Below, piece by piece: positions 17,813 through 35,164 of a DNA stretch of 64,000 nucleotides. How positions within the stretch are numbered: position 1 is the first letter of the stretch; each line of letters opens with the position of its first letter. The stretch spans positions 90,625-154,624 of the forward strand of contig JAZDLQ010000017.1 in assembly GCA_043801855.1 (NCBI GenBank). Direction: 5' to 3'. The notes beneath the pieces are model-generated. The model saw nothing but the letters and a program-made list of their open reading frames with translations, was not told the origin of the DNA and did no database searches. The stretch comes from an archaeon. GTDB lineage: Archaea > Nanobdellota > Nanobdellia > Woesearchaeales > GW2011-AR15. A program made the position numbers and the translations under genes.

Positions 17813-18439
17813 CTAATTGCCAAGAGCTTTGCTTATCGCTTTTTTAAATCTGTCAAGAGATTTAAGCCCAAAAATTATTGCAAACTCTCCAACCAAAGAA
17901 TATTTTTTTACATTGAACTTGGTCTGGAGTATAAGCATATCTTCTGAAGCATAAGGAGAAATTCCTTTAGCAAGAAACCTAAAGACAAGCTCTTTTTTAT
18001 TAATCTGCACAAGCGGATCTGTTTGGATAAAGTTCATATTTAAGAAAGTTCCAAGCGCATTAATATAAGACTCAGATAAGCTAATCCCTATAGCCTTAAA
18101 TTTTTCTTCGCATTCAAGCGTAATTGTTTTTGTTGTGCCTATTGGGTTTTTTTCAATTAAATCAAGCAGCACAGTTGAAAATTTTCTGTCAAATACTGTA
18201 ATTATGCTTCCGAGAGCATCACCTTTCACTCTGAGAAAAACAGAAACAACAGGATCGTTACTCTGCTGCTTGTATTCATTGACAAGGTTTTTAGAGTCAA
18301 TTATTTTTATTTCGGTTAAGTTCATTTCGACCTTTTCATTGACCATCTGAGACAATCTTATTGCTGCGTTGCCTGAGCCGATATTTCCTACTTCTTTCAT
18401 TGCATCAATTTCAAAATCACTTAGCTTATTTTGGTCCAT
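17813..18439 (-). CDS. cheC: CheC-family protein (paralogue 1; second site degenerate)
   Basis: DAMKEVGNIGSGNAA; second ExxN site absent. Confidence 0.85.
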   Translation of the reverse strand: MDQNKLSDFEIDAMKEVGNIGSGNAAIRLSQMVNEKVEMNLTEIKIIDSKNLVNEYKQQSNDPVVSVFLRVKGDALGSIITVFDRKFSTVLLDLIEKNPIGTTKTITLECEEKFKAIGISLSESYINALGTFLNMNFIQTDPLVQINKKELVFRFLAKGISPYASEDMLILQTKFNVKKYSLVGEFAIIFGLKSLDRFKKAISKALGN

Positions 18440-18982
18440 TTATTCACTCCATGTTTTCATTTCATCTGCAATTTTTGATATTTCGGAAACCAGCAGCAGG
18501 TTTTCACTTCCTGTAAATACAATTACAGAGAACTTTTTTTTCTGGCTTTCGGTTTTAAGATATAACAGTGATTTCACTATTTTCTCAATAGAATTATAAT
18601 ATAATGCAATATCAATAATATCTATTGCAACAAAGCTTGGGCTGTATTTCAAAAAGATAGAATCAAGGCTTTCAATTATTCCGTCAAGGTCATTTGGATT
18701 CATAAGGTAGAATATGCTATCATCATCAGGCATTTCATCAGCTCTCACACAAACAGCGTCAATAAATGCAAGATTTGATGTGTCAATGCCTTTTGAGGCT
18801 ATTTTTTTTTTATCATTAAAAGATGGATTTCGAAAGTTAATTATCACACCGCTTGAAACTTTGCTAATAGCAGAAATCAGGCTTAAGTAACAATTAGTAA
18901 GCTGCGAAGGTTTTGCTTTCACTAAATAAAAACCAGGTGTTTCAGTGATATTTTTTATTAATTTATCCTCAAAACTTGTCAT
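18440..18982 (-). CDS. Degenerate RecA/KaiC-fold protein lacking Walker A (DUF835/DUF7504-like)
   Basis: FIDA, FVAID..ALYYN pattern; paralogous to 34628-35164. Confidence 0.6.
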   Translation of the reverse strand: MTSFEDKLIKNITETPGFYLVKAKPSQLTNCYLSLISAISKVSSGVIINFRNPSFNDKKKIASKGIDTSNLAFIDAVCVRADEMPDDDSIFYLMNPNDLDGIIESLDSIFLKYSPSFVAIDIIDIALYYNSIEKIVKSLLYLKTESQKKKFSVIVFTGSENLLLVSEISKIADEMKTWSE

Positions 18983-19082
18983 TGCGTTATTTCTATTTAT
19001 TTGTTACTATATAAATATTTTGACTTTAAAAATTTGTTTAATAAGATAATAAGAATTTGATAAAAAAATAAAAAATATTTTT

Positions 19083-20594
19083 TTATTGCGTAGGCTCAAT
19101 TACTATTTGCTTTCCCTTGTTTTTTCCAACAGAATGGATTGAGCAGGAAATGCACGGGTCAAATCCTCTTACTATGTGCGCAGCTTCAAGAATGCTGTCG
19201 CTTTTGCTTAATTTAGTTCCAATTAGCGCAGCTTCAATTGCAGAGTGATGCCCTTTTGAATCAATAGGAGACGCATTCCATGTTGTTGGGGTGATTATCT
19301 GGTATGATGTGACTTTGGAATCTTTGATATTGATCCAGTGACTAACCGCTCCCCTTGGGGCTTCAGCTAGTCCAACTCCAGAGCCATTTTTCACTTCTTC
19401 AAATGGGTAATAGAATGGCTTTTGAAGATCAATCTCAGAAACCCACTCAATTAATTTTGGCATGATTAATAAGATTTCATGCAGCCTGGCAATAGTTCTT
19501 GTGAATGTGTTTATCCCAAATGCGCCAACAAGGTCTTTTATTAACGGATCTTCATTAACAATCTGCCTTGCAAGAGGGCCGCATTCTACTGCGTGACCAA
19601 AATACCTGGGTGTTTTTATCCATGAATAAGCTCCATTTTTCTTAGGATGCGGTTTTGTCTTTCCGTTTAATGGATGTCTCCATTCATTTTCTGATTCATA
19701 GTACGATGAAGCCGTATCTTCAAAAATTAATTTGCTGTCAACTGGATGAAATATTCCTCCTTCGACATATCCTGGCTTAAAAAGATAGCTTCCGTTGCTG
19801 TTTTTGCCATATCCGAATGAAAGGAAATTATTAGGTGATCCTTCTCCATATTTATGAAGGCCGATGTCCTGTGCATACCTAATAAATACTCCAACATCAG
19901 AATCAGCAAAAGCTTTATTTTCCATAAGCTTTAGGAGGTCTTTAACTGTTTTTACTTTTTGCCAGTCTTCAATTGTTACTCCTCCCAGAATTTCCTGCTC
20001 GATAAATGCCTTTACTTCTTTAAGCATAGTATCTGTTTTTATCAGTTCGATGAATTTAGGTATGCTGCATACTCCACCTGGAACTGCATGCATTGGATGA
20101 GGGAATTTTCCGCCAAATGTTGCAACAACGCTGTGCAGAGGAATTCTTGCCTTGACTAAAACATCTTTTAAGTGAGGGCTTTTTAGCGGGTCAAATCTTT
20201 TTAAGACTTCTTTATACAATGGCTGGTTTTTATAAGCATCATTGACTAAATCAGGGCCCCACATAAAATAAAAATGTGTTGCATGGCTTACGCATATATT
20301 TGATCCAAGAACAACATCTCTGACAAGCTGCGCATTTCTTGGAATCTTAAAATTTGCTGCAGCTTCAATTGCAATAGCGCCTGCTGTTCCGTGCGAAACA
20401 GGGCATACTCCGCATGTTCTTTGAGACATTCTCATGGCGTCAAATGGCTTTTGGCCGATAAAAATATTTTCAAATCCTCTATATACAAAGCCAAGAGATT
20501 TTGCATTAGTAATTACGTTTTTGTCATCAACGCTTATTTCAATAGCCATGTCTCCTTCAATTCTGTTTAATGGGTCAATTGTTAATTTTTTCAT
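19083..20594 (-). CDS. [NiFe]-hydrogenase large subunit, group 2 (HupV/HoxC-like)
   Basis: PLNRIEGD, L1 RTCGVC, L2 DPCISCSIH followed by a 16-aa extension. Confidence 0.93.
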   Translation of the reverse strand: MKKLTIDPLNRIEGDMAIEISVDDKNVITNAKSLGFVYRGFENIFIGQKPFDAMRMSQRTCGVCPVSHGTAGAIAIEAAANFKIPRNAQLVRDVVLGSNICVSHATHFYFMWGPDLVNDAYKNQPLYKEVLKRFDPLKSPHLKDVLVKARIPLHSVVATFGGKFPHPMHAVPGGVCSIPKFIELIKTDTMLKEVKAFIEQEILGGVTIEDWQKVKTVKDLLKLMENKAFADSDVGVFIRYAQDIGLHKYGEGSPNNFLSFGYGKNSNGSYLFKPGYVEGGIFHPVDSKLIFEDTASSYYESENEWRHPLNGKTKPHPKKNGAYSWIKTPRYFGHAVECGPLARQIVNEDPLIKDLVGAFGINTFTRTIARLHEILLIMPKLIEWVSEIDLQKPFYYPFEEVKNGSGVGLAEAPRGAVSHWINIKDSKVTSYQIITPTTWNASPIDSKGHHSAIEAALIGTKLSKSDSILEAAHIVRGFDPCISCSIHSVGKNKGKQIVIEPTQ

Positions 20595-21484
20595 TGTGAG
20601 TCACCTCCGTAGAGGACTTTTTTCTTCGCTTTAACCATGTCTTCAACTTCCTTTGGAAGGCTTAGTGTTTCCTCACTAAATGGTGTCATTGTCACTGGAA
20701 ACCCAGGGTCACAGCAGCCAATGCATGGAGCGCCTGATCTTGTACAGGATGAAACACCGTTCCATAATCGTACATTGCAGTCTGCGTTTGTTGTTCTGCC
20801 TTTGCATCCAAGAGTTGCTGCGTAGCATCCAACTTCAGTATAATTCTTTGCCCAAAGTCCTCTTTCATGGAATTCGCAGTGCTTGCATCCTCTATGGACT
20901 TTCTCCTCAAAATAATCTTTTGGCCTGTTGTATTCATCAAGAACTACTGGCCTTCCAAGCCTAAACGACTGGATTGTATTAATGACCCAGTCAGGATGAG
21001 TTGGGCACCCAGGAATATTTATTACTGGAAACCCAAGGCCTGAAATATAATCTTTTCCAAGAAAGCCACCCTTTGTATGACCATGAAACTGCAGGCCAGT
21101 TGCTCCTGATTCATTAGGCGGAGCAGCAGGGATTCCTCCGAATGCTGCGCAGGTTCCGACTGCAATAGTTAAGTTTGATTTTGAAGCAAAATTTTTTACC
21201 ATATTTTTAACGTCTTCTCCTCCGAAAAAATCTCCAAACCCTTCTTTCATAGGAACACTTCCCTCAAATACAAATAAGTCAATCCTTATTTTTCCACCTA
21301 AACAGTCATTAAACAATTTTTTTGCTTCTGCTCCAAAAACAGGGCTAATTGTTGGGTGATACAATAAATTAATATTATTTCTCTTAAGAAAAGTCAGGAA
21401 ATCCGGTCTCTCTGCGTCAAATACAGACATTGAATCTCCGTCGCATGTCTGACCCTGCATCCAAATAAGATTTAGCTCTTGCAT
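20591..21484 (-). CDS. [NiFe]-hydrogenase small subunit, cytoplasmic (HupU/HoxB-like)
   Basis: No Tat signal; TCDGDSMS, GTCAAFGG, GCPTHP, VHRGC, LGCKG, DCNVRLWNG, CIGC. Confidence 0.93.
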   Translation of the reverse strand: MQELNLIWMQGQTCDGDSMSVFDAERPDFLTFLKRNNINLLYHPTISPVFGAEAKKLFNDCLGGKIRIDLFVFEGSVPMKEGFGDFFGGEDVKNMVKNFASKSNLTIAVGTCAAFGGIPAAPPNESGATGLQFHGHTKGGFLGKDYISGLGFPVINIPGCPTHPDWVINTIQSFRLGRPVVLDEYNRPKDYFEEKVHRGCKHCEFHERGLWAKNYTEVGCYAATLGCKGRTTNADCNVRLWNGVSSCTRSGAPCIGCCDPGFPVTMTPFSEETLSLPKEVEDMVKAKKKVLYGGDSQ

Positions 21485-21572
21485 TAAACTCCACCTCTTT
21501 TAAGCTCTCTATTTTTATTTAAAATATTTAGTTTATTTAAATAAAATATTAACTCTAAATAATTATTATCAA

Positions 21573-21629
21573 TTAAGTATATAAATATTTAGTTAAGTAT
21601 ATAAATATTAACTACACAATTATGTAGTT
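21573..21629. promoter_or_regulatory. Duplicated TATA unit plus palindromic operator
   Basis: ttaagtatataaatatt at 21573 and 21593; aactaca-N6-tgtagtt at 21610-21629 just before ATG 21631. Confidence 0.6.
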
Positions 21630-21630
21630 T

Positions 21631-21987
21631 ATGAAAAAATGTGAATTTAGAAAAATGCTATTATTTCTTGGAAAAAAATATAGTCTTACTTTATTATATG
21701 TTATGTCTGATGAGCCAATAAGATATAATCAGCTTTTTTCGCTCTTTAAGTCAAATATCAATCCTACATTACTATCCAGGCGCCTCAAAACTATGCAAGA
21801 GCTCAGATTAATAAAAAGGATAATTGTTGATAACACTGTTTTTTATGTCCAGACAAAAAATGCAAAAAGTCTAAAAAACACGCTTGATTTGCTAAAGAAA
21901 TTAATGGCACAAGAAAACTATTTTGTGCCTGCAATATGCCGAAACGTAAATAGCAGATGCACTTGCGATTTACTAAAAAAAGCCTGA
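21631..21987 (+). CDS. HxlR/MarR-type winged-helix regulator with Cys residues
   Basis: LGKKYSL..L, IRYNQL, INPTLLSRRLK; N-terminal Cys and C-terminal CRNVNSRCTC. Confidence 0.85.
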   Translation: MKKCEFRKMLLFLGKKYSLTLLYVMSDEPIRYNQLFSLFKSNINPTLLSRRLKTMQELRLIKRIIVDNTVFYVQTKNAKSLKNTLDLLKKLMAQENYFVPAICRNVNSRCTCDLLKKA

Positions 21988-22119
21988 GCACCATTTTTTA
22001 CAGATTTAGTTTTTCTAACCTTTTTTCCTATTTTATCATCTATCTTTTTTAAACTCTTACTACTTTAAAGTGCTACAATATAAATATAAACTCTTTGTGA
22101 ATATTTAATTTTGTATATT

Positions 22120-22177: not shown

Positions 22178-22185
22178 GTGATTAT

Positions 22186-22350: not shown

Positions 22351-22400
22351 TTAAATAAACAATTAATTAAAAAACTACAAAAAAAAGAGGTGGGGACTAA

Positions 22401-23792
22401 ATGAAAATTAGGGATTTAATATTCACGATGTTTATTGTAAGTATAATTGTTAATTCTGCTATTATTGTTGCTTTTGCGTCAGGCAAAGTCAACCAGATTA
22501 GTGAAGTAACTTCTAAATCCAGTTCAGATACTTTAAAAAATAACGCAGCAAAAAGCTTAATTGATACGGCAATTGGACTTAAGGATTCGCTGGACAGCCA
22601 ATTAACAAACCATTACACTCTTGTAAAAACATGGGCAAGCAACCCTCTATTACAGCAGACTTCAAAAGAAGCGCAAAAATACTCAAAAGAAGCACTTTAT
22701 GAGATGTGGAGCGCGCAAAGCACAAGAGTATATGATGAAGGAGAGGCTACAGGAGACGGAAATCCTGACAATGATTTAAGTTCAACAGCATCAAAGTATT
22801 TAATAACACTTTCTACAATGACTGGAGTTTACCCTGAAATATTCACAACAGATAATAGAGGCTATGCTATTGCAGCTAATGTTGCAACAGGTGATTTTGA
22901 TCAGGGGCCAGATGACTGGAGAGTTTTTTTAAATGAAGCCGGACAACCTTATTTTAAGCAAAATAAACCTGGAGTTGACCAGGAGCCATGGTATTATGCA
23001 GCAAATCAGGCAGTTGACGGGTTCTATATAAGCAAAACTATTTATGATGAAAGCTCTGGTACTTGGGGATTGGAATTAGTCAGCCAGATGAGAGATCCTA
23101 CTAGTTTGGAATACCTTGGCCAGATAAAAGCAGTTTTTGATTTTAGCAAGTTTGTAGGCCAGCTTGTTAATGTAGAGGATCTTGCTGTTGATGAAATCCA
23201 GGTAATTGATGCAAGCGGCAAGGTAATTGCTGATTCAGACGGCAAAGCAGTATCAGGAGATCTTGCAACAATAGATTCAGCTTTTATGAGCGAGATTAAC
23301 AAAGGTAAAAATTCAGGCTACGTTGCCAGAGTAGATGAAGAAGGAAATAAAGTAATAACTGCTTATGCAAGGTCAAATGATAAAAATAAATATGTTGTTG
23401 CAGTATCTAAAAGAGAAAGTGATATTGATATGCCTATTAATAGTTTTGTTGACGGTTTGACCGGAAACATTAAAAAAGTTGGCAGTGAGTTGCAGATGAA
23501 TATAATAATAATTGCAGCAGTTGTTGGTCTTCTTACGCTATTAGTTGCATTTGTTGTAATAAATGCGCAAATAGTAGATCCTGTAAACAGGCTTTCAGAA
23601 GTAGCAGATAAATTAACAGATGGCGACTTTTCAGTAAGCATGCCGGAAATAAAAACCAGAAATGAGATTCAGAAATTCTCTGCGTTGACTGCGTTGTTAG
23701 TTTCGATTATTAAACAGGGCAGAGAAGGCAAGAAAGAAGAGCATAAAGAAGAGAAAAAAGAAGAACATAAAGAAGAGCATAAAAAGAAATAA
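22401..23792 (+). CDS. Membrane sensor: TM-dCache-like-TM-HAMP, no signalling domain
   Basis: EIFTTDNRG, PWY, VIDASGKVIADS Cache-like motifs; HAMP PVNRLSEVADKLTDGDFS..NEIQKF; ends in KEEHKEE repeats. Confidence 0.8.
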   Translation: MKIRDLIFTMFIVSIIVNSAIIVAFASGKVNQISEVTSKSSSDTLKNNAAKSLIDTAIGLKDSLDSQLTNHYTLVKTWASNPLLQQTSKEAQKYSKEALYEMWSAQSTRVYDEGEATGDGNPDNDLSSTASKYLITLSTMTGVYPEIFTTDNRGYAIAANVATGDFDQGPDDWRVFLNEAGQPYFKQNKPGVDQEPWYYAANQAVDGFYISKTIYDESSGTWGLELVSQMRDPTSLEYLGQIKAVFDFSKFVGQLVNVEDLAVDEIQVIDASGKVIADSDGKAVSGDLATIDSAFMSEINKGKNSGYVARVDEEGNKVITAYARSNDKNKYVVAVSKRESDIDMPINSFVDGLTGNIKKVGSELQMNIIIIAAVVGLLTLLVAFVVINAQIVDPVNRLSEVADKLTDGDFSVSMPEIKTRNEIQKFSALTALLVSIIKQGREGKKEEHKEEKKEEHKEEHKKK

Positions 23793-23875
23793 TTAACACT
23801 AATTTTTTCTTTTTTTCTTTCGATACATTTATATACTTGCTTCTCAGTTAATTTTATAAAAAAGAGGTGTGGGAT

Positions 23876-26281
23876 ATGAGGCTAAATGACATTAGCATTA
23901 GATGGCAGTTACTGATTATCTGTGTTCTATTGGTCAGCGTTCCGTCGATTATACTTGGTGTGATAAGCTATAATACTATAAAAGCTGAAACTGAAATTCA
24001 GGTTGAGCAAAACCTGATTCTGCAAAATAAAATTATCATGAATAATGTTAGGGATTATTATGATCTGTCAATGAAAAATCTCGAATCTAATCTTGCAACA
24101 GCTGAAGTTATTGCAACAAAAGGTGTCCTTACACCCAGAAACTATGCTCTTGATTATCAACATAAGTTAAAAGTGAATGCTGTTAACCAGATAACAAAAC
24201 AGTCAAAGCAATTAGATATACCTACAATGACGGTTAATGATGATTCTGCATATCATGATTTTATCTATGTAGATAGAATTAAAGAAGCAGTTGGAGGGAC
24301 AGCAACAATTTTCCAGCTTATCCCTGACGGATTATTCAGGATATCTACAAATGTCATTAATGAAGACGGATCGCGTGCTGTTGATACTTATATTCCTACT
24401 GATTCTCCTGTATACAAATCTATAATTTCCGGTCAGACTTACTATGGAAATGCTTTTGTTGTAACTGCCTGGTATGTTGCTGCATATACACCTATCCGGG
24501 ATTCTTCTGGTCAAGTTATCGGTGCATTATATGTAGGTATTCCTGAAAAAGATTTTAAAGAACCAGTCCTTCAGTCACTATCTGAAATAACTGTCGGTAA
24601 AACCGGATACTTATGGATACTAAATGAAAAAGGCGAATACGTGCTTTCTCTTAGCAGAAAAAGGGATGGCGAAAGCATATATGATTCACAGGATTCAAAT
24701 GGAAGAAAGTTTGTTCAGGAATGGCTCGCAAAGGCGCCTTCCATGAAGCATGGAGAAGCAGTAATTGATTATTATCCTTGGAAAAATACAGGAGAGACAC
24801 ATGAAAGATTAAAAATTGCGTCATATTCTTATTTTCCTGAATGGAAATGGACAGTCGGCTCAAGCATTTATATGGATGATTATTATGATAATCTTAATGC
24901 AATAAAAAACCAGACTATTCTGACAGTAATTTTCTTTATTGTAATTGGCTCATTTGCTGCTTATCTTGTTGCATTGAATATCAGAAAAATGCTTAAGCCT
25001 CTATCTGACGTTATGAAAAAGCTTGCTGATGGCGATTTGTCGGCAAGAGTTGATATGCATAATGTAGGAAAAAATGAGTTTGGAGAGCTTGCTTGCGGAA
25101 TTAATGCAATGCTTGATAATACCGCAACACCAATTAAAGAATTAAGCTTAGTTGCAAAATCAATTACAGATGGCGACCTTAATGTAAAAGTTGAAGTCAA
25201 TGCAAAGGGCGACATGGTAGTTCTTGTACAGGCAATTAGGACAATGGTTGAAAGCCTAAGAGATTTTGTAGTTTTAGTTTCAAAAAACGCAAATATGGCA
25301 GCAACATCTGCTGAAGAGCTTTCAGCATCGGCTGAAGAAGTAAATGCCTCAACAGAGCAGGTGAACGCAACAATTCAGGAATTATCTAAAGGAGGGCAAA
25401 ATCTGGCGACAATTGCTGCCAATACTAAACAAATAGTTGAATCAGTCGGAATGGCGGCAAGGCTTGTTTCAGAAAGCAGCAAAAAGGCAACAGAAGGTGC
25501 AACAAAAGCCGGAAAGATTGCACAGGAAGGAACTGATGCTGGAAAAAAAGCAGATCTTGTGATGAAAAATATTTTAGAAAGCACTCAGGCAACAACTAAA
25601 AATATTAGCCAGCTTGATGATAAAAGCAAAGAAATTGGAAAAATTATCGATGTCATAAATAGCATTAGCGAGCAGACAAACCTTCTTGCGCTAAATGCGG
25701 CAATAGAAGCAGCAAGGGCAGGAGATGCAGGAAGAGGATTTGCAGTTGTTGCAGATGAAGTAAGAAAGCTTGCTGAAGAGTCAAAGAAAGCAACAGCCCA
25801 GATAGCTGAGATGATAACTTCAATACAGAGCGGAACAAAAGAAAGTGTTGAAGATATGTCCAAAGCAAGTAAGGTTGTTCAGGAAGGAACTGCTGTTGTT
25901 ATGTCTGCTCTTGCTTCGCTTGAAGAAATTTCCATAATTTCAAAAGATGTGGGAATGCAGGTTCTCGAGGTTAATGCAGCAGCTGAACAGGCATCAGTTG
26001 GAATTGATCAGGTAAATAAATCAATCCATGAGGTAAGCGCAGTTGCAGAGGAGAGCGCTGCTGCAACAGAGGAAGTATCAGCATCAATGGAAGAGACTGG
26101 AAGCTCAATGCAGCAGGTTAGTTCAGAAGCGCAAAATCTTGCAAAGGGGGCTGATGAGCTTCGGCATTTATTATTAAGGTTTAAGGTTAATTCAGATGAA
26201 GAGATTCCTATGCCAAAACCGTTCCCAGCTAAGAATGCCTTCCCTGACGATAGTCATAAGCTGAAGAAAGATAAGCATTAG
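23876..26281 (+). CDS. Methyl-accepting chemotaxis protein (Cache_3-Cache_2-like sensor, two HAMP domains)
   Basis: [23 protein letters not shown]; [38 protein letters not shown]; GAGGTG RBS. Confidence 0.96.
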
Positions 26282-26307: not shown

Positions 26308-26799
26308 ATGCCTGAAAACAAAGAAAAATCACTTGGAATCGAAAAGCAGTTAGTAATCTTTAAGCTTGGTAAAGAAGAATTTGGCGTTGACATCAATCAA
26401 GTTAGGGAAATTATTAAGATGGAAGCGATAACCAAAATCCCTAACACTGAAGAATACATTCAGGGAGTAATTAACCTAAGAGGTAAGATAATTGTAATTG
26501 TCGAATTATCAAAAAAGCTTAACATGATTTCAGGTGAAAAAAACAAGGATACCAGGATAATTGTAACAGAAATTGGTGATAGCACTATTGGAATGATTGT
26601 TGATAATTGCAACGAGGTCCTAAGATTATCAAGCAGCCAGATTGAGGCTGCTCCTGAGATTATTACTAAAAAAATAAACTCAGAATATATTGTAGGAGTT
26701 GGTGTCATTAAAGAGAGGCTTATTATCCTGCTTAATCTAGGAAAAGTGCTAGGCGATAGTGACATGCAAAAACTTGAAGCGCTAAAAGAGACCGTCTAA
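26308..26799 (+). CDS. cheW: CheW coupling protein
   Basis: EEFGVDINQVREII, GVINLRGKII. Confidence 0.95.
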   Translation: MPENKEKSLGIEKQLVIFKLGKEEFGVDINQVREIIKMEAITKIPNTEEYIQGVINLRGKIIVIVELSKKLNMISGEKNKDTRIIVTEIGDSTIGMIVDNCNEVLRLSSSQIEAAPEIITKKINSEYIVGVGVIKERLIILLNLGKVLGDSDMQKLEALKETV

Positions 26800-26816: not shown

Positions 26817-27443
26817 TTATTTTTTTGCTTCAGACAAAATAATATTTATAGATTCTGTATTAAAATTTACTATCAAATCAGAATATAATGGCACTTCACA
26901 ATTATCTGCGTATAATACTGTATGTATGTTGATTAGATAAGTTGTTGACTCATCGAAGTTCTTGAAGAAAACTTTTTCTATAAATTCAGATGAGTTCACC
27001 TTGAAAAAAGTGGGTGGTGACAAGTCCATCCTAAACTTAACCATTTTTGAAATTGCAGAGATATATGAGCTTATGATTATGTTTGAATACTCTTTTAAGA
27101 TGTCTATGCTGTAACTATCCAGCTCCTTATCTGAATTTTTCTCTTGAGGATTTAGGCAATTAACAATGCTGCGCGATGTTTCTTCACCCAACAGATTGAA
27201 TAAACAGCCACTGATATTTCCTGAAATTTTTTCAAACACAGTTATTATTTGCTGCTCCCCGCCGACATGTGTGAGAATTTTTTCTTTTTCAATAAGGCTT
27301 ATATCTGTAATTTTCACTAGAATATCTTTGTTTATTAGTTTACCAAGCGCTCTAGAGGATTTGCCAAGACCAATATTTGTTAATTCCTTTATAATATCAA
27401 TATCGAATTCACTTAATTTTAGCTCTTTTACAATGTTTGCCAT
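26817..27443 (-). CDS. cheC: CheC-family protein (paralogue 2, antisense to the cluster)
   Basis: DIIKELTNIG and DILKEYSNII sites. Confidence 0.85.
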   Translation of the reverse strand: MANIVKELKLSEFDIDIIKELTNIGLGKSSRALGKLINKDILVKITDISLIEKEKILTHVGGEQQIITVFEKISGNISGCLFNLLGEETSRSIVNCLNPQEKNSDKELDSYSIDILKEYSNIIISSYISAISKMVKFRMDLSPPTFFKVNSSEFIEKVFFKNFDESTTYLINIHTVLYADNCEVPLYSDLIVNFNTESINIILSEAKK

Positions 27444-27575: not shown

Positions 27576-27941
27576 ATGAGTAAGAAAGTAATGATAGTTG
27601 AAGATTCAAATCTTATGGTTTCTGTCATAACAAATTTCATAAAAAAATCAGGCATGGATATAAACATTGTAGTTGCCCATTCAGGAGAAGAATCGATTGA
27701 GCTTTATCAAAAAGACAGGCCAAACCTTGTTTTTATGGATATAAAGATGCCCGGAATGGATGGAATAACTGCTCTTGAAAATATTAAGAAAATAGATAAT
27801 TATGCTAAAGTTGTGATGTGTACTTCATTAAAGGACCCTGACAGCGAGGAGCGATCTAAAAAGTGCGGCTGCGTCGGTTATATAATGAAGCCATTTGGCA
27901 GCAAAGATATTATTGATGCGCTTGAAAAGAACCTGAGGTGA
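27576..27941 (+). CDS. cheY: Stand-alone response regulator (CheY-like 1)
   Basis: VED, MDIKMP, CTS, KPF; GAGGTGA RBS. Confidence 0.88.
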   Translation: MSKKVMIVEDSNLMVSVITNFIKKSGMDINIVVAHSGEESIELYQKDRPNLVFMDIKMPGMDGITALENIKKIDNYAKVVMCTSLKDPDSEERSKKCGCVGYIMKPFGSKDIIDALEKNLR

Positions 27942-27949
27942 AGTTAAGC

Positions 27950-28312
27950 ATGGCCCTAAAAGTATTAATAGTTGATGATTCACTTTTTATGAGAACTATG
28001 CTTAAGAAGATAATCACAGAAGCTGGTGCAGAAATTGTTGCTGAAGCAGGTGACGGCGCAGAAGCTCTTATAAAATATAATGAAGTAAAGCCTGACCTCG
28101 TGTTTCTTGATGTTGTGATGCCAAATGTTGATGGAATTCAGGCTCTGAAAAATATTAAAGCCTCAAATCCGGATTCTACAGTTATCATGTGCACATCAAC
28201 CGGCCAGGATATGATAGTCAAAGAAGCCGTTGACTCAGGCGCTGCAGACTTTGTGGTTAAGCCATTCTCAAAAGAAGATATTCAAGGAATAATCCAAAAA
28301 TACCAGGGATGA
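27950..28312 (+). CDS. cheY: Stand-alone response regulator (CheY-like 2)
   Basis: VDDSLFMR, LDVVMP, GAADFVVKPF. Confidence 0.92.
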   Translation: MALKVLIVDDSLFMRTMLKKIITEAGAEIVAEAGDGAEALIKYNEVKPDLVFLDVVMPNVDGIQALKNIKASNPDSTVIMCTSTGQDMIVKEAVDSGAADFVVKPFSKEDIQGIIQKYQG

Positions 28313-29367
28313 ATTTCCCTACTAGGAATATTATGATAAATGTTTTAGTAGTTGATGATTCTGCATTTATGAGAAAAGTAATTTGTGATATTTTGACCGT
28401 TGATAATGAAGTAAAAATTGTCGGTGTTGCAAACAATGGTGCCGGCGCTCTTAAAAAAATTACTGAGCTTCATCCTGATGTTGTTACTATAGACCTTCAT
28501 CTTCCTGATATTGATGGGACTGATTTGATTAAGCAGATTATGAAAGAAAATCCTGTTCCTATTGTTGTTGTAAGTGCATTTACAAAAAATGACTCTGCGC
28601 AGATAATAGAAGCTCTGCAGTCAGGAGCAGTTGACTTTGTTAAGAAGCCATCCGGTGAAATATCACTTAATATTAGGGAGATTGGAGCAGATATTATTAA
28701 TAAAGTAAAGGCAGCTTTCATATCGAAACTTAAGACAGGGTCGCAGGAAAAGAAACATGTCATTGTAAGAAAATTTAACCCGTCTAGAAAAAAAATTGTT
28801 GTGATTGGCGCTTCAGCCGGTGGGCCGCCTACACTAGAGGCGCTTTTAACTTTGCTTCCTAAAAATATTCCTGTGCCTATCCTTATTGTCCAACATATGC
28901 CGCCAGGTGATTTTACAGCAACTCTTGCAAATAGGCTTGACTCAATTTGTGAAATTCGAGTAAGAGAAGCAAAAGAAGGAGATGAGTTGCAAAACGGAGT
29001 TGCACTAATTGCTCCAGGGGGCTTTCATATGGAATTAAAGACAGATAATCCTCTATTTGAAGGAAAAATTGCGCTTAATACCGAGCCCAGAGAGCTTGGA
29101 GTAAGGCCTTGTGTAAATCGGCTTTTTGCTTCAGCTGCAAAAATATTTCAGGAAAACACTATTGGAATAGTCCTCACAGGAATGGGTTCTGACGGCAAAA
29201 ATGGTGCCGGTGAAATTAAAAAATATAACGGAACAATTCTGGCTGAATCTGAAGAATCATGCGTCATTTTTGGCATGCCAAAAGAAGTAATTAAAGCAGG
29301 CCTAGCTGATGAGATTGTGCCTATAGATAAAATGGCAGTAGCGCTAGTGCAGCTTGTTGAAGTGTAA
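28309..29367 (+). CDS. cheB: CheB methylesterase (REC + esterase)
   Basis: VDDSAFMR, GASAGG, VQHMP, LTGMGSDG; true start may be 28333. Confidence 0.96.
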   Translation: MNFPTRNIMINVLVVDDSAFMRKVICDILTVDNEVKIVGVANNGAGALKKITELHPDVVTIDLHLPDIDGTDLIKQIMKENPVPIVVVSAFTKNDSAQIIEALQSGAVDFVKKPSGEISLNIREIGADIINKVKAAFISKLKTGSQEKKHVIVRKFNPSRKKIVVIGASAGGPPTLEALLTLLPKNIPVPILIVQHMPPGDFTATLANRLDSICEIRVREAKEGDELQNGVALIAPGGFHMELKTDNPLFEGKIALNTEPRELGVRPCVNRLFASAAKIFQENTIGIVLTGMGSDGKNGAGEIKKYNGTILAESEESCVIFGMPKEVIKAGLADEIVPIDKMAVALVQLVEV

Positions 29368-29370
29368 AAA

Positions 29371-31332
29371 ATGGATATGTCTGGCTATCTTAATGAATTT
29401 GTATCAGAAGCTAAAGATCATTTGGATGAATTAAACAATGCTATACTTGATCTGGAAAAAGAGCCGGAAAATAAAGATATTATTAACAGGATGTTTCGCT
29501 CAAGCCATACTCTAAAGGGAAATGGGGCAGCAATGGGTTTTTTAAAATTTGCAGAGCTTGCACATTCTATCGAAGATGTGATGTCAAAAATAAGAGACGG
29601 AAAAATTGCTGCTGATAGTGGCATCATTAATATTATCCTTCAGGGATGCGATATAATGGAAAAAAGCCTTGAAAATATTGCACTTGGCAAGGAAGATACA
29701 ACTGAATCTGAAAACCTAATTGAAGAGTTTAAAAACATTACCAATATAAAACCTGAAAAAAGCACAGCGCAAAATGTCTGTGCAAAGACGATTCTTACAG
29801 AAATTGAAAAAAAAGAGATAGATGATGAAACTGCCAAAGGAAATAATGTATTTAGGATTGTCCTTGTTTTTGAAAAAAATAACAATCTAAAGAGCGCAAA
29901 GGCAAGCGTATTGCTAAGAGAATTACGCAAAAATGGCAAAATTATCAAAACAACGCCAGATGCAGAAAAAATTAGTAAAGGCGAAATAGGTTTAGAGCTG
30001 GAAATAATTGTTTGCACAAATATGCAAAAAGAAAGCTTAATATCAGCTATTGATAAAGTATCTGGAATATCAAGCATTTTTGTTTTATCACTGGATGAAG
30101 AATATGTAAAAAGCACCCAGCAAAAAAACGAGGAAAAAGAGGCCGCTAAAGCGCAAATTATTAACGAGCACAAGAATTATGCAGTAGGTAAAGTTCAAAA
30201 CATTAAGGTGAGCATGGAAAAACTTGACAAACTTATGAATCTTGTTGGCGAACTTCTAATAAGCAACATCAGGCTTCAGGATATTGCCCATAAGAAGGAT
30301 TATGACCGGTTAAAGCTTGTTTTGAATGATGTAGATAGGCTTGTTCTTGACCTGCAATCAGATATAATGGAAGTGAGGATGGTGCCGATAGGAAGCATTT
30401 TCAATAGATTCCCAAGAATGGTTAGGGATATTGCAAATCATGAGAAAAAAAATGTGAATCTGATTATTGAAGGAGAAGATATTGAGTTTGACAGAACTGT
30501 TTTGGATAAAATAGGCGATCCTCTTGTTCATCTTCTGAGAAATTCAGTCGACCATGGCATAGAGCTGCCTGATATTAGGTTAAAAAAGGGAAAGCCGGAA
30601 GAAGGAATAATTAAGCTTATTGCAAAAAGGGAGAAGAGCAAAGCAATAATTGAAGTATCAGATGACGGCGATGGAATAGACCCAAAAGCAGTCGCAGAAA
30701 CCTGTATAAGAAAGGGTACTTTGACCAAAGAGCAGGTTGAAAAAATGAGTGATAAAGAACTTCAGATGCAGATTTTTGTTCCTGGAACAACCACCAGTAA
30801 AGTGATTACAGAACTATCCGGCAGGGGCGTTGGCATGGACACTGTAAAAAGCATGATTACTAGTCTGAGAGGAACTGTCCGGCTAAGCAGTACTGTTGGA
30901 ATAGGCACTAGTGTTACAATTGAGCTTCCTTTAACTGTTGCAATAGTTACAGCTCTACTGGTTGAAGTGGGCGGCGATTTATATGCAATTCCACTATCAA
31001 ATGTCGACCAAACTGTTGATATTAAATCTGAAGATATTAAAACAGGCATAGGCCATGATGTTTTTTTGCTGAGAGGAAAAGTAATTCCTTTGTTTTGGCT
31101 AGATGAGTTACTTAGATATGGCAATAAAAAAGTAAGCAAAAAAGTAACTGTTATAATTGTAAATAAAGAGGGTGAGGAATGCGGTTTTGCAGTTGACTCA
31201 ATATTTTCAAAGCAGCAAGTATTAATTAAGTCTTTTTCAGATACGCTAAAAAGTGTTACATCGTTTTCAGGTGCAACTATTCTGGGTGACGGAAAAGTTG
31301 CGCTAATCCTTGATGTGAACTCGTTAATATAA
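29371..31332 (+). CDS. cheA: CheA histidine kinase
   Basis: HPt HTLKG, P2 domain, HLLRNSVDHGIE, SGRGVGMD, C-terminal CheW domain. Confidence 0.97.
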   Translation: MDMSGYLNEFVSEAKDHLDELNNAILDLEKEPENKDIINRMFRSSHTLKGNGAAMGFLKFAELAHSIEDVMSKIRDGKIAADSGIINIILQGCDIMEKSLENIALGKEDTTESENLIEEFKNITNIKPEKSTAQNVCAKTILTEIEKKEIDDETAKGNNVFRIVLVFEKNNNLKSAKASVLLRELRKNGKIIKTTPDAEKISKGEIGLELEIIVCTNMQKESLISAIDKVSGISSIFVLSLDEEYVKSTQQKNEEKEAAKAQIINEHKNYAVGKVQNIKVSMEKLDKLMNLVGELLISNIRLQDIAHKKDYDRLKLVLNDVDRLVLDLQSDIMEVRMVPIGSIFNRFPRMVRDIANHEKKNVNLIIEGEDIEFDRTVLDKIGDPLVHLLRNSVDHGIELPDIRLKKGKPEEGIIKLIAKREKSKAIIEVSDDGDGIDPKAVAETCIRKGTLTKEQVEKMSDKELQMQIFVPGTTTSKVITELSGRGVGMDTVKSMITSLRGTVRLSSTVGIGTSVTIELPLTVAIVTALLVEVGGDLYAIPLSNVDQTVDIKSEDIKTGIGHDVFLLRGKVIPLFWLDELLRYGNKKVSKKVTVIIVNKEGEECGFAVDSIFSKQQVLIKSFSDTLKSVTSFSGATILGDGKVALILDVNSLI

Positions 31333-31349
31333 TGAGGTGTTATTATAAA

Positions 31350-31964
31350 ATGGATGGTGTGAAGCTTACAGAAATGGAGCAGGATGCGCTAAGGGAGTGC
31401 GCAAATGTAGGCATTGGAAATGCTGCTACATCACTTTCAATATTGCTAAAAAAGAGAATTAATATAAAAATCCCTGAAGTGAAATTTATTCCAATTGAGA
31501 AGTTTTCTCTTGAAATAGGAGGGCCTGAGACAGTTGTTTCAGGAATATATCTTACTGTCCAGGGTGATCTGCAGGGAGAGGTAATATTTATCTTTCCTAA
31601 AAATGATGCGCTTGAGCTTGTCTGCCTTCTCCTGGGAAACGCACAAACAGAATTGACTCCGGAACTGTCAGAATCCGGCTTCAAGGAAATGTCAAATATT
31701 GTTACAGGCTCTTACCTAAACGCGCTTGCAAATATGCTTGACCTTAAAATTCTTCCTTCAATACCGCACACAGCAACAGATATGGCTGGTGCATTGATTG
31801 ATTTTCTCTTAAGTAAAGTTGCTCTGTATTCAGATAATATCTTAGCAATTAAAACAGAAATATATATAGATGAACATAGTATTACAGGAACCTTTATTAT
31901 AATATTTTCAATTGAGAGCTTAAATAAAATTATGGATATGTTGCATGATAAATATGGCGTATGA
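31350..31964 (+). CDS. cheC: CheC phosphatase (paralogue 3)
   Basis: DALRECANVG and FKEMSNIV sites; start uncertain (31332/31350). Confidence 0.92.
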   Translation: MDGVKLTEMEQDALRECANVGIGNAATSLSILLKKRINIKIPEVKFIPIEKFSLEIGGPETVVSGIYLTVQGDLQGEVIFIFPKNDALELVCLLLGNAQTELTPELSESGFKEMSNIVTGSYLNALANMLDLKILPSIPHTATDMAGALIDFLLSKVALYSDNILAIKTEIYIDEHSITGTFIIIFSIESLNKIMDMLHDKYGV

Positions 31965-32568
31965 ACTGACTAAATCACAGCTTGATGCAATTAATGAAAT
32001 GTGTAATATAGGCGTAGGAAGAGCTGCAACGTCACTCTCAAAAATACTTAATAGAAAAATTGAAGTGACTGTCCCAAGTTTTTCTTTTCTTCCAATTTCA
32101 GAATGCCTTAATAAGTCTGGGAACGAATCGCTTTGCGGGCTTCGCCTTGCTATGGAAGGAGATATAAAAGGTGAAACAGTGCTTCTGTTTGAAGAAAGCG
32201 CAGCACAGACACTTTCAAGAATGGTATGCAACAGTGCAGGTATAGAAAGCGCATGGAGCCGTGAAGAGGAAAATGGGGCATTTTGTGAATTTGCAAATAT
32301 TTTTATTGGCAATTTCCTTAACGCAATATCTGATATGCTTTGCTTTAGAATTACTCCCGGGCTACCGCAGGAAACTGCAACAAGCTTAAGGTTAGTTCTT
32401 GAAAATTTGATGCATATGGAATCAATGAGTAGCGTATCCAATTATTTACTGCTTATAAATTCAGCTTTTTTTGTGTCTGAAAAAAATATTGAGGGTGAGA
32501 TACTTTTGTTTTTTACTGATGATTCTTTGCAATTGCTATTAGGGAGGCTGCAAAATAAAATAATATAA
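31954..32568 (+). CDS. cheC: CheC phosphatase (paralogue 4)
   Basis: DAINEMCNIG and FCEFANIF sites. Confidence 0.88.
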   Translation: MAYELTKSQLDAINEMCNIGVGRAATSLSKILNRKIEVTVPSFSFLPISECLNKSGNESLCGLRLAMEGDIKGETVLLFEESAAQTLSRMVCNSAGIESAWSREEENGAFCEFANIFIGNFLNAISDMLCFRITPGLPQETATSLRLVLENLMHMESMSSVSNYLLLINSAFFVSEKNIEGEILLFFTDDSLQLLLGRLQNKII

Positions 32569-32574
32569 AGTAAA

Positions 32575-33075
32575 ATGGAACTAAGCAACCAATTAATAGT
32601 TGACATGGGAAAATTTGTAATTGCGCATAATCCTGATACTCTTTGCGTGCTTGGAATTGGAAGCTGTATAGCGGTAGTTTTATATGATTTAGAGCAGCAT
32701 ATTGGCGGCCTTGCCCATGTGATGCTGCCTGACAGCAAATCCATGGGAAGGGACACCACCAAGGAATTAAACCTTAATAAGTTTGCAGACGTGGCAATAC
32801 CAAATATGCTATCTGAAATGCAAAAAAAAGGCTGCAAAAAAGAGCGTATAAAAGCAAAAATTGCTGGCGGAGCGCATATGTTTAAGACAATAGTTGAAAC
32901 TGAGATTCTTGAGATTGGAAAAAGAAATATAGAGGCAGTAAAAAGCGCATTGGATCAATTTAGTATTCCTCTTATTGGCGAAGACACAGGTGGGTCTTGC
33001 GGAAGGACAGTGAGATTTGATATTTCAACAGGAGTTGTGACGGTTAGGACTATAAATGGAATCTTTAAAATCTAG
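32575..33075 (+). CDS. cheD: CheD deamidase
   Basis: LGIGSCIAV, GLAHVMLP, KIAGGA, IGKRN, EDTGG..GRT. Confidence 0.96.
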   Translation: MELSNQLIVDMGKFVIAHNPDTLCVLGIGSCIAVVLYDLEQHIGGLAHVMLPDSKSMGRDTTKELNLNKFADVAIPNMLSEMQKKGCKKERIKAKIAGGAHMFKTIVETEILEIGKRNIEAVKSALDQFSIPLIGEDTGGSCGRTVRFDISTGVVTVRTINGIFKI

Positions 33076-33937
33076 TGAGCAAGCTCAGCAAATAAAATCA
33101 GCTGACATGGAGGAATTAAGAAGGCTGATTGCAAGCCTGCTGAAATTTAACACCAGCCAGTATACAGACAGTTTCATTTTACGTAGAGTTAATATACGCC
33201 TAAGAGTTAAGAATATCTCTTCTATTTCAGAGTATAACTTGCTTCTTGCTAAAGATATTGCTGAAAGGGATTTGTTAAAAAAAGAATTGACAATCCATGT
33301 TACCCATTTTTTCAGGGACTTTTCAGCATATTCTGCATTTGCAAAAGATGCAATACCAATAATTTTTGAAGCTAAAAAAAATAGTTCAAAAAAAACTATC
33401 AAAATTTTATCTGCAGGCGGATCAACCGGCGAAGAGGCATATTCAATTGCAATTTGCTTTGCTGAAGCGATGAGAGAATCCAATTTTAAATTCAATGTTA
33501 ATATCATTTCATGCGATCGTGATGATGCAACAATTGAAAAGGCAAAAATCAGCGTTTATGAGGAAAGCCAATTCAAAGAGACGCCTCCGGAATACGTTGC
33601 CAGATATTTTTCAAAGTTCAATGATGAAAAGACCTATTATCCTATTGATTTGATACGAAAAATGGTGCAGTTTGTCAAATGCGATCTTCTCCTTTATGAT
33701 ATTGAATCCGGATATGATGCAATTTTTTGCAGAAACACAGTAATATATTTTAACAGGCATGCAAAAGAAATTCTTTACTCTCATTTCTATGATTGCCTAA
33801 ATGAGCCGGGGTTTCTCATACTTGGAAAAACAGAGCTATTGGCTGGCAGGGCAAAGGAGCAATTTAGCATATTTAATTCAGTTGAAAGAATATACAAAAA
33901 AGAGAATATTCAGGCAGCCGCCAATAACAATCTATAA
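33056..33937 (+). CDS. cheR: CheR methyltransferase
   Basis: TIHVTHFFRD, SAGGSTGEEAYS, IFCRNTVIYF. Confidence 0.95.
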   Translation: MESLKSSEQAQQIKSADMEELRRLIASLLKFNTSQYTDSFILRRVNIRLRVKNISSISEYNLLLAKDIAERDLLKKELTIHVTHFFRDFSAYSAFAKDAIPIIFEAKKNSSKKTIKILSAGGSTGEEAYSIAICFAEAMRESNFKFNVNIISCDRDDATIEKAKISVYEESQFKETPPEYVARYFSKFNDEKTYYPIDLIRKMVQFVKCDLLLYDIESGYDAIFCRNTVIYFNRHAKEILYSHFYDCLNEPGFLILGKTELLAGRAKEQFSIFNSVERIYKKENIQAAANNNL

Positions 33938-33953
33938 ATAGTCTTTAGTTATA

Positions 33954-34631
33954 TTGATTTTCATGGGCGCCATGGGTAAAAAAGAGGCAATTGGCGAAAA
34001 GCAAAAAGAGCCAGGCAAATTTGAAGGCATTACAATACTTGAGCTTGATACTCTTAGAGAGCTTGCAAACATTGGTACAGGAAACGCAAGCATTGCCCTT
34101 TCTTCGCTGCTGAATACTCGGGTTAATATTAGTATTCCTACAACAGCTCTTGTGAATATCAAAGAAGTTGCTGGCTACATAAAAAGCAGCAATGAAATGA
34201 CAATTGGCTTGTACAGCAGCATTACGCAAGGCATAAGCGGAAATTTAATTGCTATGTTTCCGGTAGACAGTGGAATAATTCTTGCAAACAGCCTTGCTTT
34301 TAATGAGTCAAGCGGAGCAGATGTGCTTTCAAAGAAACATGCGGAAATACTCAAGAAACTTGGCAGTGTGCTGTATGCAATTTACCTATCGAGTATTGCC
34401 GGTTTTTTACGCTCAAATATTACTTTTCAGCCACCAAATATAATTTCTACTATGGGCAGCTCAATTATTGATTTTATTCTTGTTGATATTGACCAAAATG
34501 AAAAATGCTTGCTGATAAACCTTGGTTTTGACGCAATGAATAAGGCAATTAAAGGAGATTTTATTTTGATTTTTACAGTATCTTCGCTTATGCCGATGCT
34601 TGAAAAACTTAGAAAAGAGGATGCTAAATGA
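33954..34631 (+). CDS. cheC: CheC-family protein (paralogue 5; second site degenerate)
   Basis: DTLRELANIG; second site reads LKKLGS; start uncertain. Confidence 0.85.
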   Translation: MIFMGAMGKKEAIGEKQKEPGKFEGITILELDTLRELANIGTGNASIALSSLLNTRVNISIPTTALVNIKEVAGYIKSSNEMTIGLYSSITQGISGNLIAMFPVDSGIILANSLAFNESSGADVLSKKHAEILKKLGSVLYAIYLSSIAGFLRSNITFQPPNIISTMGSSIIDFILVDIDQNEKCLLINLGFDAMNKAIKGDFILIFTVSSLMPMLEKLRKEDAK

Positions 34632-35164
34632 ACATTAATCTTGAATCCGAATTAAAAGAAAAAAAAACTATTCTTGTTGTAATACCAAATGTCGAATACC
34701 AGGAGACAATATTAAGCTTATGCAGACAGCTTAATACCAACTATAACAGAATTGCCTATATTAGCCTGAATAAATTAATAACCCCTCTTCGCCGCACACT
34801 TGAAGATAATAAAATTAATACTGAAAAGTTCTTTTTTATTGACGGAATCACAAAAACAGCGATACCAAATCCGCCATCTTCATCTAATATTATCTATGTT
34901 CCAGCGCCAAATGACCTAACAAAACTTAGCATTGCAATAACAAAGGTTTTGCAGACATTTGACCCGGACTGCCTGTTTTTTGAGAGCATGTCAACACTTC
35001 TTATCTATGAAGAAGAAAAAGTCATCAGCCAATTCATGTATTCGGTTGTAAATAAAGTAAACGCATTTGGCATCCGCTGCATCTTAACATGCCTTGATGG
35101 CAGAAAAGAAGAGATATTAATAAATGACTTAAGCTTAGTACTTGATAAGATTGTGAAGAGATAG
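34628..35164 (+). CDS. Degenerate RecA/KaiC-fold protein lacking Walker A (DUF835/DUF7504-like)
   Basis: YISLNK, FFIDGI, LFFESMSTLLIY. Confidence 0.65.
   Translation: MNINLESELKEKKTILVVIPNVEYQETILSLCRQLNTNYNRIAYISLNKLITPLRRTLEDNKINTEKFFFIDGITKTAIPNPPSSSNIIYVPAPNDLTKLSIAITKVLQTFDPDCLFFESMSTLLIYEEEKVISQFMYSVVNKVNAFGIRCILTCLDGRKEEILINDLSLVLDKIVKR

Follow-up and report, generated by a model that had tools for sequence, protein, structure and literature searches.

A cytoplasmic [NiFe]-hydrogenase whose genes stand back to back with a complete set of chemotaxis (che) genes raises the question whether the enzyme reports hydrogen to the chemosensory pathway or whether the two gene sets are neighbours without any exchange of signals. 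This arrangement is found in the 64,000-nucleotide stretch of archaeal DNA analysed here (the window), which belongs to a 2.25 Mb assembly (G000) of 111 contigs that is 88.8% complete. A preliminary description of the window had taken the organism to be DPANN-like and the enzyme to be a candidate hydrogen sensor of the HupUV/HoxBC (group 2b) type. The names of the closest large-subunit homologues show the first of these assignments to be right: these proteins are 59-76% identical, fall into ~40 clusters and are labelled Woesearchaeota, Pacearchaeota or Nanobdellota where they are named, with the next identity at 44%. The second assignment did not hold; instead, sequence comparisons place the enzyme in a Woesearchaeal lineage of its own, which belongs to the group 2 radiation and is catalytically intact. 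We nevertheless consider it possible, at slightly less than even confidence, that this hydrogenase reports H2, or a redox state set by H2, to the Che pathway. Specifically, a cytoplasmic [NiFe] heterodimer with its own maturation set, genetically coupled to the one chemosensory pathway of the organism, would inform this pathway about the availability of H2 or about the redox state resulting from it, and the cell would bias its movement or attachment along H2 gradients. We infer the existence of any such signalling link, as well as its route, from the gene content and sequence comparisons described below.

The two subunit genes head a single minus-strand operon that reads, in the order of transcription, small subunit, large subunit, KaiC-fold protein, CheC-like protein, endopeptidase, hypC, hypD, hypE, hypA and hypB, and ends at position 13863; a listing of open reading frames (ORFs) together with Pfam and NCBIfam scans found all genes where the preliminary description had put them. 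The small subunit (P0002; 20591-21484, minus strand; Pfam Oxidored_q6 and NiFe_hyd_SSU_C) indeed has no twin-arginine translocation (Tat) signal, and in the alignment it starts at the conserved core, whereas the membrane-bound HoxK carries a leader of ~45 residues with RRSFLK. The large subunit (P0001; 19083-20594, minus strand) matches Pfam NiFeSe_Hases with an E-value of 6.7e-87. Beyond the small subunit and divergent from it, the plus-strand che-side genes begin after 147 bp and end at position 35164; as had been claimed, the cluster is full, with the complete archaeal/Bacillus-type set of methyl-accepting chemotaxis protein (MCP), CheW, CheA, CheY, CheB, CheR, CheC and CheD. Pfam scans of the window detected no cytochrome b, diaphorase, HoxJ-type kinase or NtrC-type regulator, again in agreement with the preliminary description. 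Short contigs from one RNA run correspond to internal parts of two genes, that of the large subunit (19558-19792, 1 difference in 235) and that of a Cache-HAMP membrane protein on the che side (22909-23085, 1 difference in 177); these matches document presence in the library, are no proof of transcription and are silent on operon structure and expression level.

Which kind of hydrogenase is this? The best solved relatives of both subunits are the structures 7UTD/7UUS, named 'Hydrogenase-2' (large subunit, 1.1e-83; small subunit, 6e-71), which we take to be Huc of M. smegmatis, a group 2a enzyme. A published account places Huc in group 2a (PMC11023054). Among matches in plasmid records, HupV and HoxC scored best with 33-35% identity, and enzymes of the 2a type reached 31-33%. 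Using labelled references from annotated plasmids (HoxB/HoxC and HoxK/HoxG of pHG1, HupU/HupV of a Rhizobium plasmid and 2a-type enzymes from Mycobacterium, Runella and Thermus), we calculated three trees of the large subunit, i.e. a quick tree of 62 rows, a quick mixture-model tree of 38 rows and a finished careful tree. The labelled references cover groups 1, 2a and 2b, and the class is taken from the trees and alignments. The Woesearchaeal clade that contains the window's protein is fully supported in all three trees (100/100), its sister is one protein, P0047 (99/98), and the nearest rows outside the clade are archaeal where named, e.g. Ca. Syntrophoarchaeum. In the careful tree, the four unambiguous group 1 rows branch off at 100/99, and the window's clade groups with the 2a and 2b rows at an inner node of 87/87 with two long-branch rows labelled group 1 in between. 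The same tree unites the 2b references, the 2a references and a Desulfobacterales-type clade in a 99/97 clade, outside which the window's lineage lies. Thus, the tree proposed as a check in the preliminary description puts the enzyme in the group 2 radiation and not in the metabolic groups 1, 3 or 4. Monophyly is obtained with neither named subgroup: the 2a references from Mycobacterium, Runella and Thermus are inside the 99/97 clade that excludes the window's lineage, and monophyly with HoxC/HupV of group 2b is rejected in the approximately unbiased (AU) test (lnL difference 33.2, p 0.010), the tested group having been named after the tree was seen.

The alignments also speak against group 2b, and all four tested features of this group fail, namely an end at the C-terminal His, Gln in the L1 motif together with Ile/Phe in the gas channel, a small-subunit tail together with a kinase and regulator, and monophyly. 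HoxC and HupV stop at the C-terminal His (...CTVH), while the window's large subunit continues for 16 residues. Its L1 motif ends in His (CGVCPVSH), a position held by Gln in HoxC (CGICSVSQ) and HupV, and its gas-channel positions are Val/Met (HFYFM) compared with Ile/Phe in HoxC (HFYLF); PMC11023054 describes Ile/Phe at these positions as a feature of H2 sensors. Finally, the small subunit ends ~45 residues before HoxB and HupU and lacks a long C-terminal tail. The four motifs that had been quoted as HupUV/HoxBC signatures are present, but they are not signatures because they are common to group 2a and partly to group 1; the features that do separate the sensors are absent, and with the AU test the assignment to the 2b sensor type falls.

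What the enzyme retains is the equipment for catalysis. Both CxxC pairs of the large subunit are intact, as are its proton-relay Glu and its active-site Arg, and the N-terminal RxCGxCxxxH and C-terminal DPCxxCxxH motifs, the three Fe-S motifs of the small subunit and the NiFe_hyd_SSU_C domain correspond to the architecture of groups 1 and 2. The 16-residue C-terminal extension fits the dedicated maturation endopeptidase encoded in the operon (17259-17729, minus strand; Pfam HycI, 7.9e-16; NCBIfam hydrog_prot, 88.5 bits with a cut-off of 47), and both CxxC pairs as well as an extension of 6-19 residues are found in 38 of the 39 full-length clade members. The endopeptidase gene is followed on the same strand by hypC (17021-17281; HupF_HypC, 6.9e-26), hypD (15991-17019; HypD, 1.7e-114), hypE (14997-15974; AIRS and AIRS_C, with its position kept in relatives), hypA (14615-14974; HypA, 1.6e-22) and hypB (13863-14612; cobW/HypB/UreG, 3.6e-15). 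In the small subunit, the distal-cluster His is kept, the medial-cluster position that distinguishes 3Fe from 4Fe is Cys as in HoxB, where the 2a references have Lys, and the second proximal-cluster ligand is Asp, in place of Asn in 2a and Cys in HoxB. Judged by these residues, the enzyme seems competent for catalysis, and its electron-transfer chain appears unusual.

An association with chemotaxis is evident in the distribution of the genes. The order was represented by one evenly drawn sample of 401 genomes, of which 10, spread over 7 families, have the hydrogenase and 27 have CheA. CheA accompanies the hydrogenase in 9 of these 10 genomes and occurs in 18 of the 391 others (odds ratio 186, Fisher p 7e-11, which is overstated because related genomes are not independent). 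Within family f1, two of the eight sampled genomes have both traits and the other six, which are 96-99% complete, have neither. A phylum-level sample yielded matches in five of 391 genomes, G000 included, all within the window's order; the sole new one, G504 of family f1, is the 11th hydrogenase genome and has CheW-domain genes. Accordingly, che components occur in 10 of 11 hydrogenase genomes, whereas 18 genomes have che without the hydrogenase. In the exception, G398, neither CheA nor CheW was found, no protease or hyp genes are nearby, and the large subunit is probably no longer a Ni-Fe enzyme because it is missing the first L1 Cys and has Arg in place of the final His.

To compare gene order, we used tblastn with the window's proteins, clustering of ORFs into families and Pfam scans of representatives on 14 distinct clade loci from named contigs of metagenome-assembled genomes (MAGs), genomes and metagenome contigs. 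L006 (2.7 kb) and L082 were left out because of their shortness, and L080 because its arrangement repeats that of L079; a metagenome scan had given 11 loci, four of them in the clade. Core che genes lie within 10 kb of the subunit genes in seven of the 14 loci and in three arrangements: divergent from the hydrogenase in the window, G362 and L079; co-directional and upstream in G300/L003, G504/L004 and L005; and downstream in L081. In L005, the hydrogenase-hyp block separates the che genes from a CheC-like/KaiC-fold pair, which stands beyond the hyp genes. In G335, a Cache-HAMP gene at a contig end is all that was found, and no core che genes were found near the hydrogenase in G019, G041, G163, G184, G285 and G398, with little upstream sequence being available for G163 and G184. 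The most frequent neighbour outside maturation is an orthologue of an HxlR-like regulator (six of 14 loci); Cache-HAMP proteins without an output domain occur at four loci (window, L068, L004/L099 and L067), and NikR, HypF and an ABC transporter also recur. By contrast, no ferredoxin, cytochrome, diaphorase or Hdr-type gene recurs beside the hydrogenase in the 14 loci; in line with the preliminary description, this cytosolic enzyme has no conserved redox partner beside it. The proposed synteny survey thus had a divided outcome: the che linkage is partly conserved, by co-occurrence (9/10) and adjacency (7/14), but half of the loci have no che genes nearby.

Because the hydrogenase is almost never found without che while che is often found without the hydrogenase, because the two are neighbours in half of the loci despite rearrangement, and because no redox partner is conserved, we favour the hydrogenase as an accessory input to chemotaxis. 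Several observations weigh against this and, taken together, keep our confidence a little below even. First, every tested hallmark of the proven sensor type fails, and for this reason the enzyme looks like a working catalyst. Second, among the proteins scanned, no known transducer domain (PAS, kinase or GGDEF) is either part of the enzyme or a conserved neighbour of it. Third, among the seven loci without a core che gene nearby, CheA is on another contig in G019, G041, G163, G285 and G335, and che co-occurrence could stem from joint inheritance of an island or from a shared lifestyle. Fourth, the CheC-like/KaiC-fold pair inside the operon (P0004/P0003) is missing from all other hydrogenase loci examined, including G362 and G504 of the same family, and P0003 and P0004 have no close orthologue in five relatives; the weight that the preliminary description had placed on this pair is therefore not supported, since the pair is unique to G000. 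Fifth, the Che pathway has no obvious output, as neither CheF (PF04283) nor archaellin (PF01917), both present in Euryarchaeota, had a match in the 88.8% complete G000; this genome has five T2SSE-type ATPases.

Several of these points also suit an ordinary metabolic hydrogenase that takes up or evolves H2 through a soluble carrier (e.g. ferredoxin-like) encoded elsewhere, with che as a co-traveller on an island or as a gene set co-regulated in motile lineages that depend on H2, and without any signalling. We give this explanation, the chief competitor of the chemotaxis reading, a substantial chance, although well below an even one. The working-enzyme features that 38 of 39 members share (CxxC pairs and the 6-19-residue extension), the adjacent protease and hyp genes, and the distal-cluster His, which is kept as in enzymes passing electrons to a partner, are all expected from it; the seven loci without che nearby agree with it as well, and the patchy spread over 7 families fits island transfer. 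G000 has one [NiFe] large subunit, and its contig C72 encodes a trimeric [FeFe] HydABC (A3-type). Soluble redox carriers moreover exist in this genome: divergent from hydABC are the genes of a polyferredoxin, an HdrA-MvhD fusion (781 aa), HdrC-like and HdrB-like (CCG) proteins and an aldehyde:ferredoxin oxidoreductase (L098:9974-17393). As a general partner, however, HdrA-MvhD was rejected, since 9 of the 401 genomes contain it and just two of these, G000 and G362, also have the hydrogenase. Nor does this explanation find a conserved acceptor candidate beside the genes in the 14 loci or a respiratory sink in G000, where, at 88.8% completeness, searches for a hydrogenase cytochrome b, a molybdopterin oxidoreductase and complex I/Mrp antiporter subunits gave no match. 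It also leaves aside the asymmetry between che components in 10 of 11 hydrogenase genomes and the 18 che genomes without hydrogenase, and an adjacency that survives three gene orders.

We also observed that hydA on contig C72 (L098:6100-7590, minus strand) contains an in-frame TAG at a conserved Glu directly before the ...VMAC... H-cluster motif, and that the frame continues with the expected motif; read-through is one possible explanation, and a pseudogene or a variant of the assembly or the strain are others. Should hydA be broken, no intact hydrogenase other than the [NiFe] enzyme would be left among those found in G000.

If the hydrogenase does act as an accessory input, the signal could enter through the single MCP or the CheW/CheA array, through the Cache-HAMP protein without output, through the Cys-rich HxlR-like regulator or, in G000 only, through the operon CheC-like/KaiC-fold pair acting on CheY-P or CheD. 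In its most direct form, the active [NiFe] enzyme would be a cytoplasmic H2 chemoreceptor that docks on the array or on accessory proteins and modulates CheA/CheY-P, giving DPANN archaea with reduced genomes genuine hydrogenotaxis towards H2-producing or H2-consuming partners; we regard this form as less likely than not. The MCP has 804 residues (23867-26281; Pfam Cache_3-Cache_2, HAMP and MCPsignal), provides the one MCPsignal match in the whole of G000 and is encoded 2.4 kb from the small subunit gene. It is followed by CheW (26308-26799; Pfam CheW, 6.5e-37), a CheC/CheX-like protein, the only one of these genes on the minus strand (26817-27443; Pfam CheC and CheX), two CheY-type receivers (27576-27941 and 27938-28312; Response_reg), CheB (28309-29367; CheB_methylest and Response_reg), CheA (29371-31332; Hpt, P2, H-kinase_dim, HATPase_c and CheW), two CheC proteins (31332-31964 and 31945-32568; CheC and CheX), CheD (32575-33075; CheD, 6e-35) and CheR (33056-33937; CheR and CheR_N).

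Between the MCP gene and the operon lie the genes of two further candidate routes, both on the plus strand. The Cache-HAMP membrane protein (22401-23792) matches Pfam dCache_1 and HAMP only and has no MCP signalling domain. Such proteins, with an extracellular Cache domain, HAMP and a short Lys-rich tail, recur beside the hydrogenase (L068:13850-15133, L004:7190-8458 and L067:1-1161), although the window's protein is merely 21-25% identical to its counterparts. The HxlR-like regulator (21631-21987; Pfam HxlR, 4.4e-7) has a conserved N-terminal Cys and a C-terminal Cys cluster; among the orthologues the N-terminal Cys and a C-terminal Cys (C103) are invariant, and a following CxC is kept in most. 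HxlR/DUF24 regulators include thiol-based redox sensors. It is therefore conceivable that H2 is sensed for transcription rather than for taxis, with electrons from H2 setting the thiol or metal state of this divergently encoded regulator, which would control the hydrogenase, hyp and neighbouring genes in the manner of a regulatory hydrogenase circuit with a one-component regulator. Its being the commonest neighbour outside maturation, in four of its six loci without che nearby, and the conserved Cys residues speak for the idea. Yet a regulator encoded locally and divergently can do without touching the enzyme, the gene is missing from eight of the 14 loci, the co-occurrence with che is left unexplained, and we know of no precedent for a hydrogenase that reduces a transcription factor. 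We consider this circuit improbable.

As for the route through CheC-like and KaiC-fold proteins, the window holds two such pairs, which are distant paralogues (P0004 and P0005, 24% identical, E 4e-16; P0003 and P0006, E 1e-5). The first pair, which the preliminary description had correctly located between the large subunit and the hyp genes, consists of P0003 (18440-18982, minus strand; 180 residues; weak Pfam DUF835 and DUF7090) and P0004 (17813-18439, minus strand; Pfam CheC, E 1.4e-5), the latter with an NCBIfam CheC match (E 4.4e-23) that falls below the curated equivalog cut-off. The second pair closes the che cluster on the plus strand and consists of P0005 (33954-34631; Pfam CheC, 1.2e-8) and its partner P0006 (34628-35164; weak Pfam DUF7504, Atlas TM 0.91). 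In Atlas structure searches, which yielded family and fold only, P0003 matched KaiC/DUF7504 clusters with a TM of 0.87-0.88; over both KaiC-fold proteins the values were 0.87-0.92, and the clusters are archaeal. CheC phosphatase active sites consist of two D/S-x3-E-x2-N-x22-P motifs. When the sequences are read for this motif, P0005 keeps the entire first site; in P0004 the D, E and N of the first site are present without the Pro at +23, and the second site was not recognised. Reading the sequences of P0003 and P0006, we saw no Walker A motif (GxxxxGK[ST]), and both are on this ground of the 'inactivated KaiC' kind that PMC5847659 describes for archaeal signalling proteins. A complex prediction for P0003 with the large and small subunits (with alignments) scored 0.00 relative to a mark of 0.32; it was run without controls and is not evidence either way.

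The second pair is the conserved one. Orthologues of P0005 occur in L005 (32% identity) and G504/L099 (42%), each adjoining a KaiC-fold gene, and those of P0006 in L005 (33%) and L099 (40%). A CheC-like gene followed by a Walker-less KaiC-fold gene is thus a conserved end piece of the che cluster in three genomes (window 33954-35164; L005:20167-21370; L099:5141-6297), and this pair may be an alternative adaptor that connects CheY-P to a type IV filament motor.

Other loci of the clade and the remainder of the window contained further features. In G504 and G362, a second signalling module stands beside the hydrogenase-hyp block (L004:2392-6528 and L075:1929-6103) and comprises a small zinc-ribbon-like ORF, a CheW-REC (CheV-like) protein, a HATPase_c protein with a piece of DUF5752 and a HAMP protein. 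In two genomes of family f95 (L073 of G398, contig C69, and L067 of G335, contig C3), genes for BatA/VWA, VWA, DUF7502, MoxR and DUF58 proteins come after the large subunit gene in place of the protease and hyp genes. The clade members in L006 and protein P0031 are 67-68% identical to the window's large subunit and come from records labelled Methanosarcinales or ANME-2; because the L006 contig has merely 2.7 kb, mis-binned DPANN DNA is as likely here as gene transfer. In the window, a NikR-like nickel regulator is encoded at 12761-13180 (minus strand), and its orthologue L069:7295-7696 (63% identical) has NikR_C and RHH_1; NikR-like genes are found near the hydrogenase in L001/L066, L005 and L069. 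A restriction-modification insert (6138-12340) with an Eco57I-type methylase, a BsuBI/PstI-type endonuclease, two unannotated ORFs and a C5 cytosine methylase separates this gene from hypF, the carbamoyltransferase gene (3587-5857, plus strand; Pfam HypF_C_2, zf-HYPF, Sua5, HypF_C and Acylphosphatase). On the 3' side of the che cluster, the genes at 35223-55440 are probably cell-surface and signalling genes; thrombospondin type 3 repeats characterise a protein of 836 aa, a KaiC ATPase domain at the C-terminus and a piece of DUF5752 one of 804 aa, and Big_7 and CARDB domains one of 3640 aa, and two ORFs (473 and 712 aa) have no Pfam matches.

Full-text literature searches, which left many journals uncovered, found no [NiFe]-hydrogenase linked to che in DPANN archaea. 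The portions available of a comparative paper on Woesearchaeota report only group 3b [NiFe] and [FeFe] enzymes, and those of a lake study only [FeFe] group A3, in neither case with a hydrogenase-che link; a 2024 survey of archaeal hydrogenases contained no mention of 'group 2', and the supplementary HydDB classes of Woesearchaeota (PMC8421398 Fig. 7, Data 3) could bear on this point. Hydrogenases tied by their gene neighbourhood to a signalling pathway are known as a kind, and no description of the present combination was found in the literature searched. In anoxic habitats, fermenters and the organisms associated with them trade chiefly in H2, and a dependence on partners is assumed for DPANN archaea. 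If the enzyme is wired to chemotaxis, the locus would offer a concrete and testable mechanism by which a DPANN archaeon finds sources or sinks of H2, and a candidate sensor for hydrogenotaxis. If the chemoreceptor form were true, H2 taxis would have its first molecular sensor, and hydrogenase-based sensors would have arisen independently a third time, after the kinase-linked 2b and the [FeFe] group C enzymes. Even a purely metabolic role would leave an undescribed archaeal [NiFe] lineage of the group 2 type with unusual Fe-S ligands (proximal Asp, medial Cys) and no obvious acceptor.

How does this locus compare with known systems? That an archaeon can swim towards H2 is described for Methanococcus maripaludis; this is a physiological observation in a methanogen and not in DPANN archaea, and the part of the report available names no sensor. 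The HydDB table lists kinase-linked 2b and putative cyclase-linked 2c [NiFe] sensors as well as a putative 'chemotactic' [FeFe] group C2 linked to MCPs, and it thereby provides a precedent for sensor roles assigned from signalling neighbours. HoxBC/HupUV of group 2b resemble the window's enzyme in being cytoplasmic, Tat-less heterodimers of the group 2 radiation (33-35% identity) that have no membrane or diaphorase partner and are tied to signalling genes, and HoxB/HupU share the medial Cys and the distal His. They differ in the large subunit, where the window's protein has L1 His instead of Gln, V/M instead of I/F and a 16-residue extension with a protease, in the small subunit, which in the window lacks the ~50-residue C-terminal tail and has proximal Asp instead of Cys, and in ancestry, the window's protein belonging to a separate clade (AU p 0.010). 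On pHG1, moreover, hoxBC is flanked by a HoxJ-type kinase and a sigma-54 regulator, and, CheA aside, the window has neither. With the Huc-type 2a enzymes (7UTD/7UUS, the best-scoring solved structure), the enzyme shares the lack of a Tat signal, the C-terminal extension with its protease and the L1 His, but it lies outside the clade of 2a and 2b, has medial Cys, distal His and proximal Asp where 2a has Lys, Gln and Asn, and lacks the NifU, DUF1641 and TPR-type neighbours of 2a loci. The [FeFe] group C2 proteins are bacterial, belong to an unrelated superfamily and are fused to PAS-type domains, whereas the window's enzyme has neither a fusion nor a PAS domain; still, the proposed logic, H2 to the Che pathway, is the same, and C2 is the only class that the HydDB table lists as possibly signalling via methyl-accepting chemotaxis proteins. 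Finally, compared by neighbours and not by tree, the locus differs from [NiFe] group 2c in that no scanned protein is a GGDEF or PAS neighbour, and it agrees with what this table gives for 2c in being a group 2 enzyme for which a sensor role is proposed on the strength of the signalling genes beside it.

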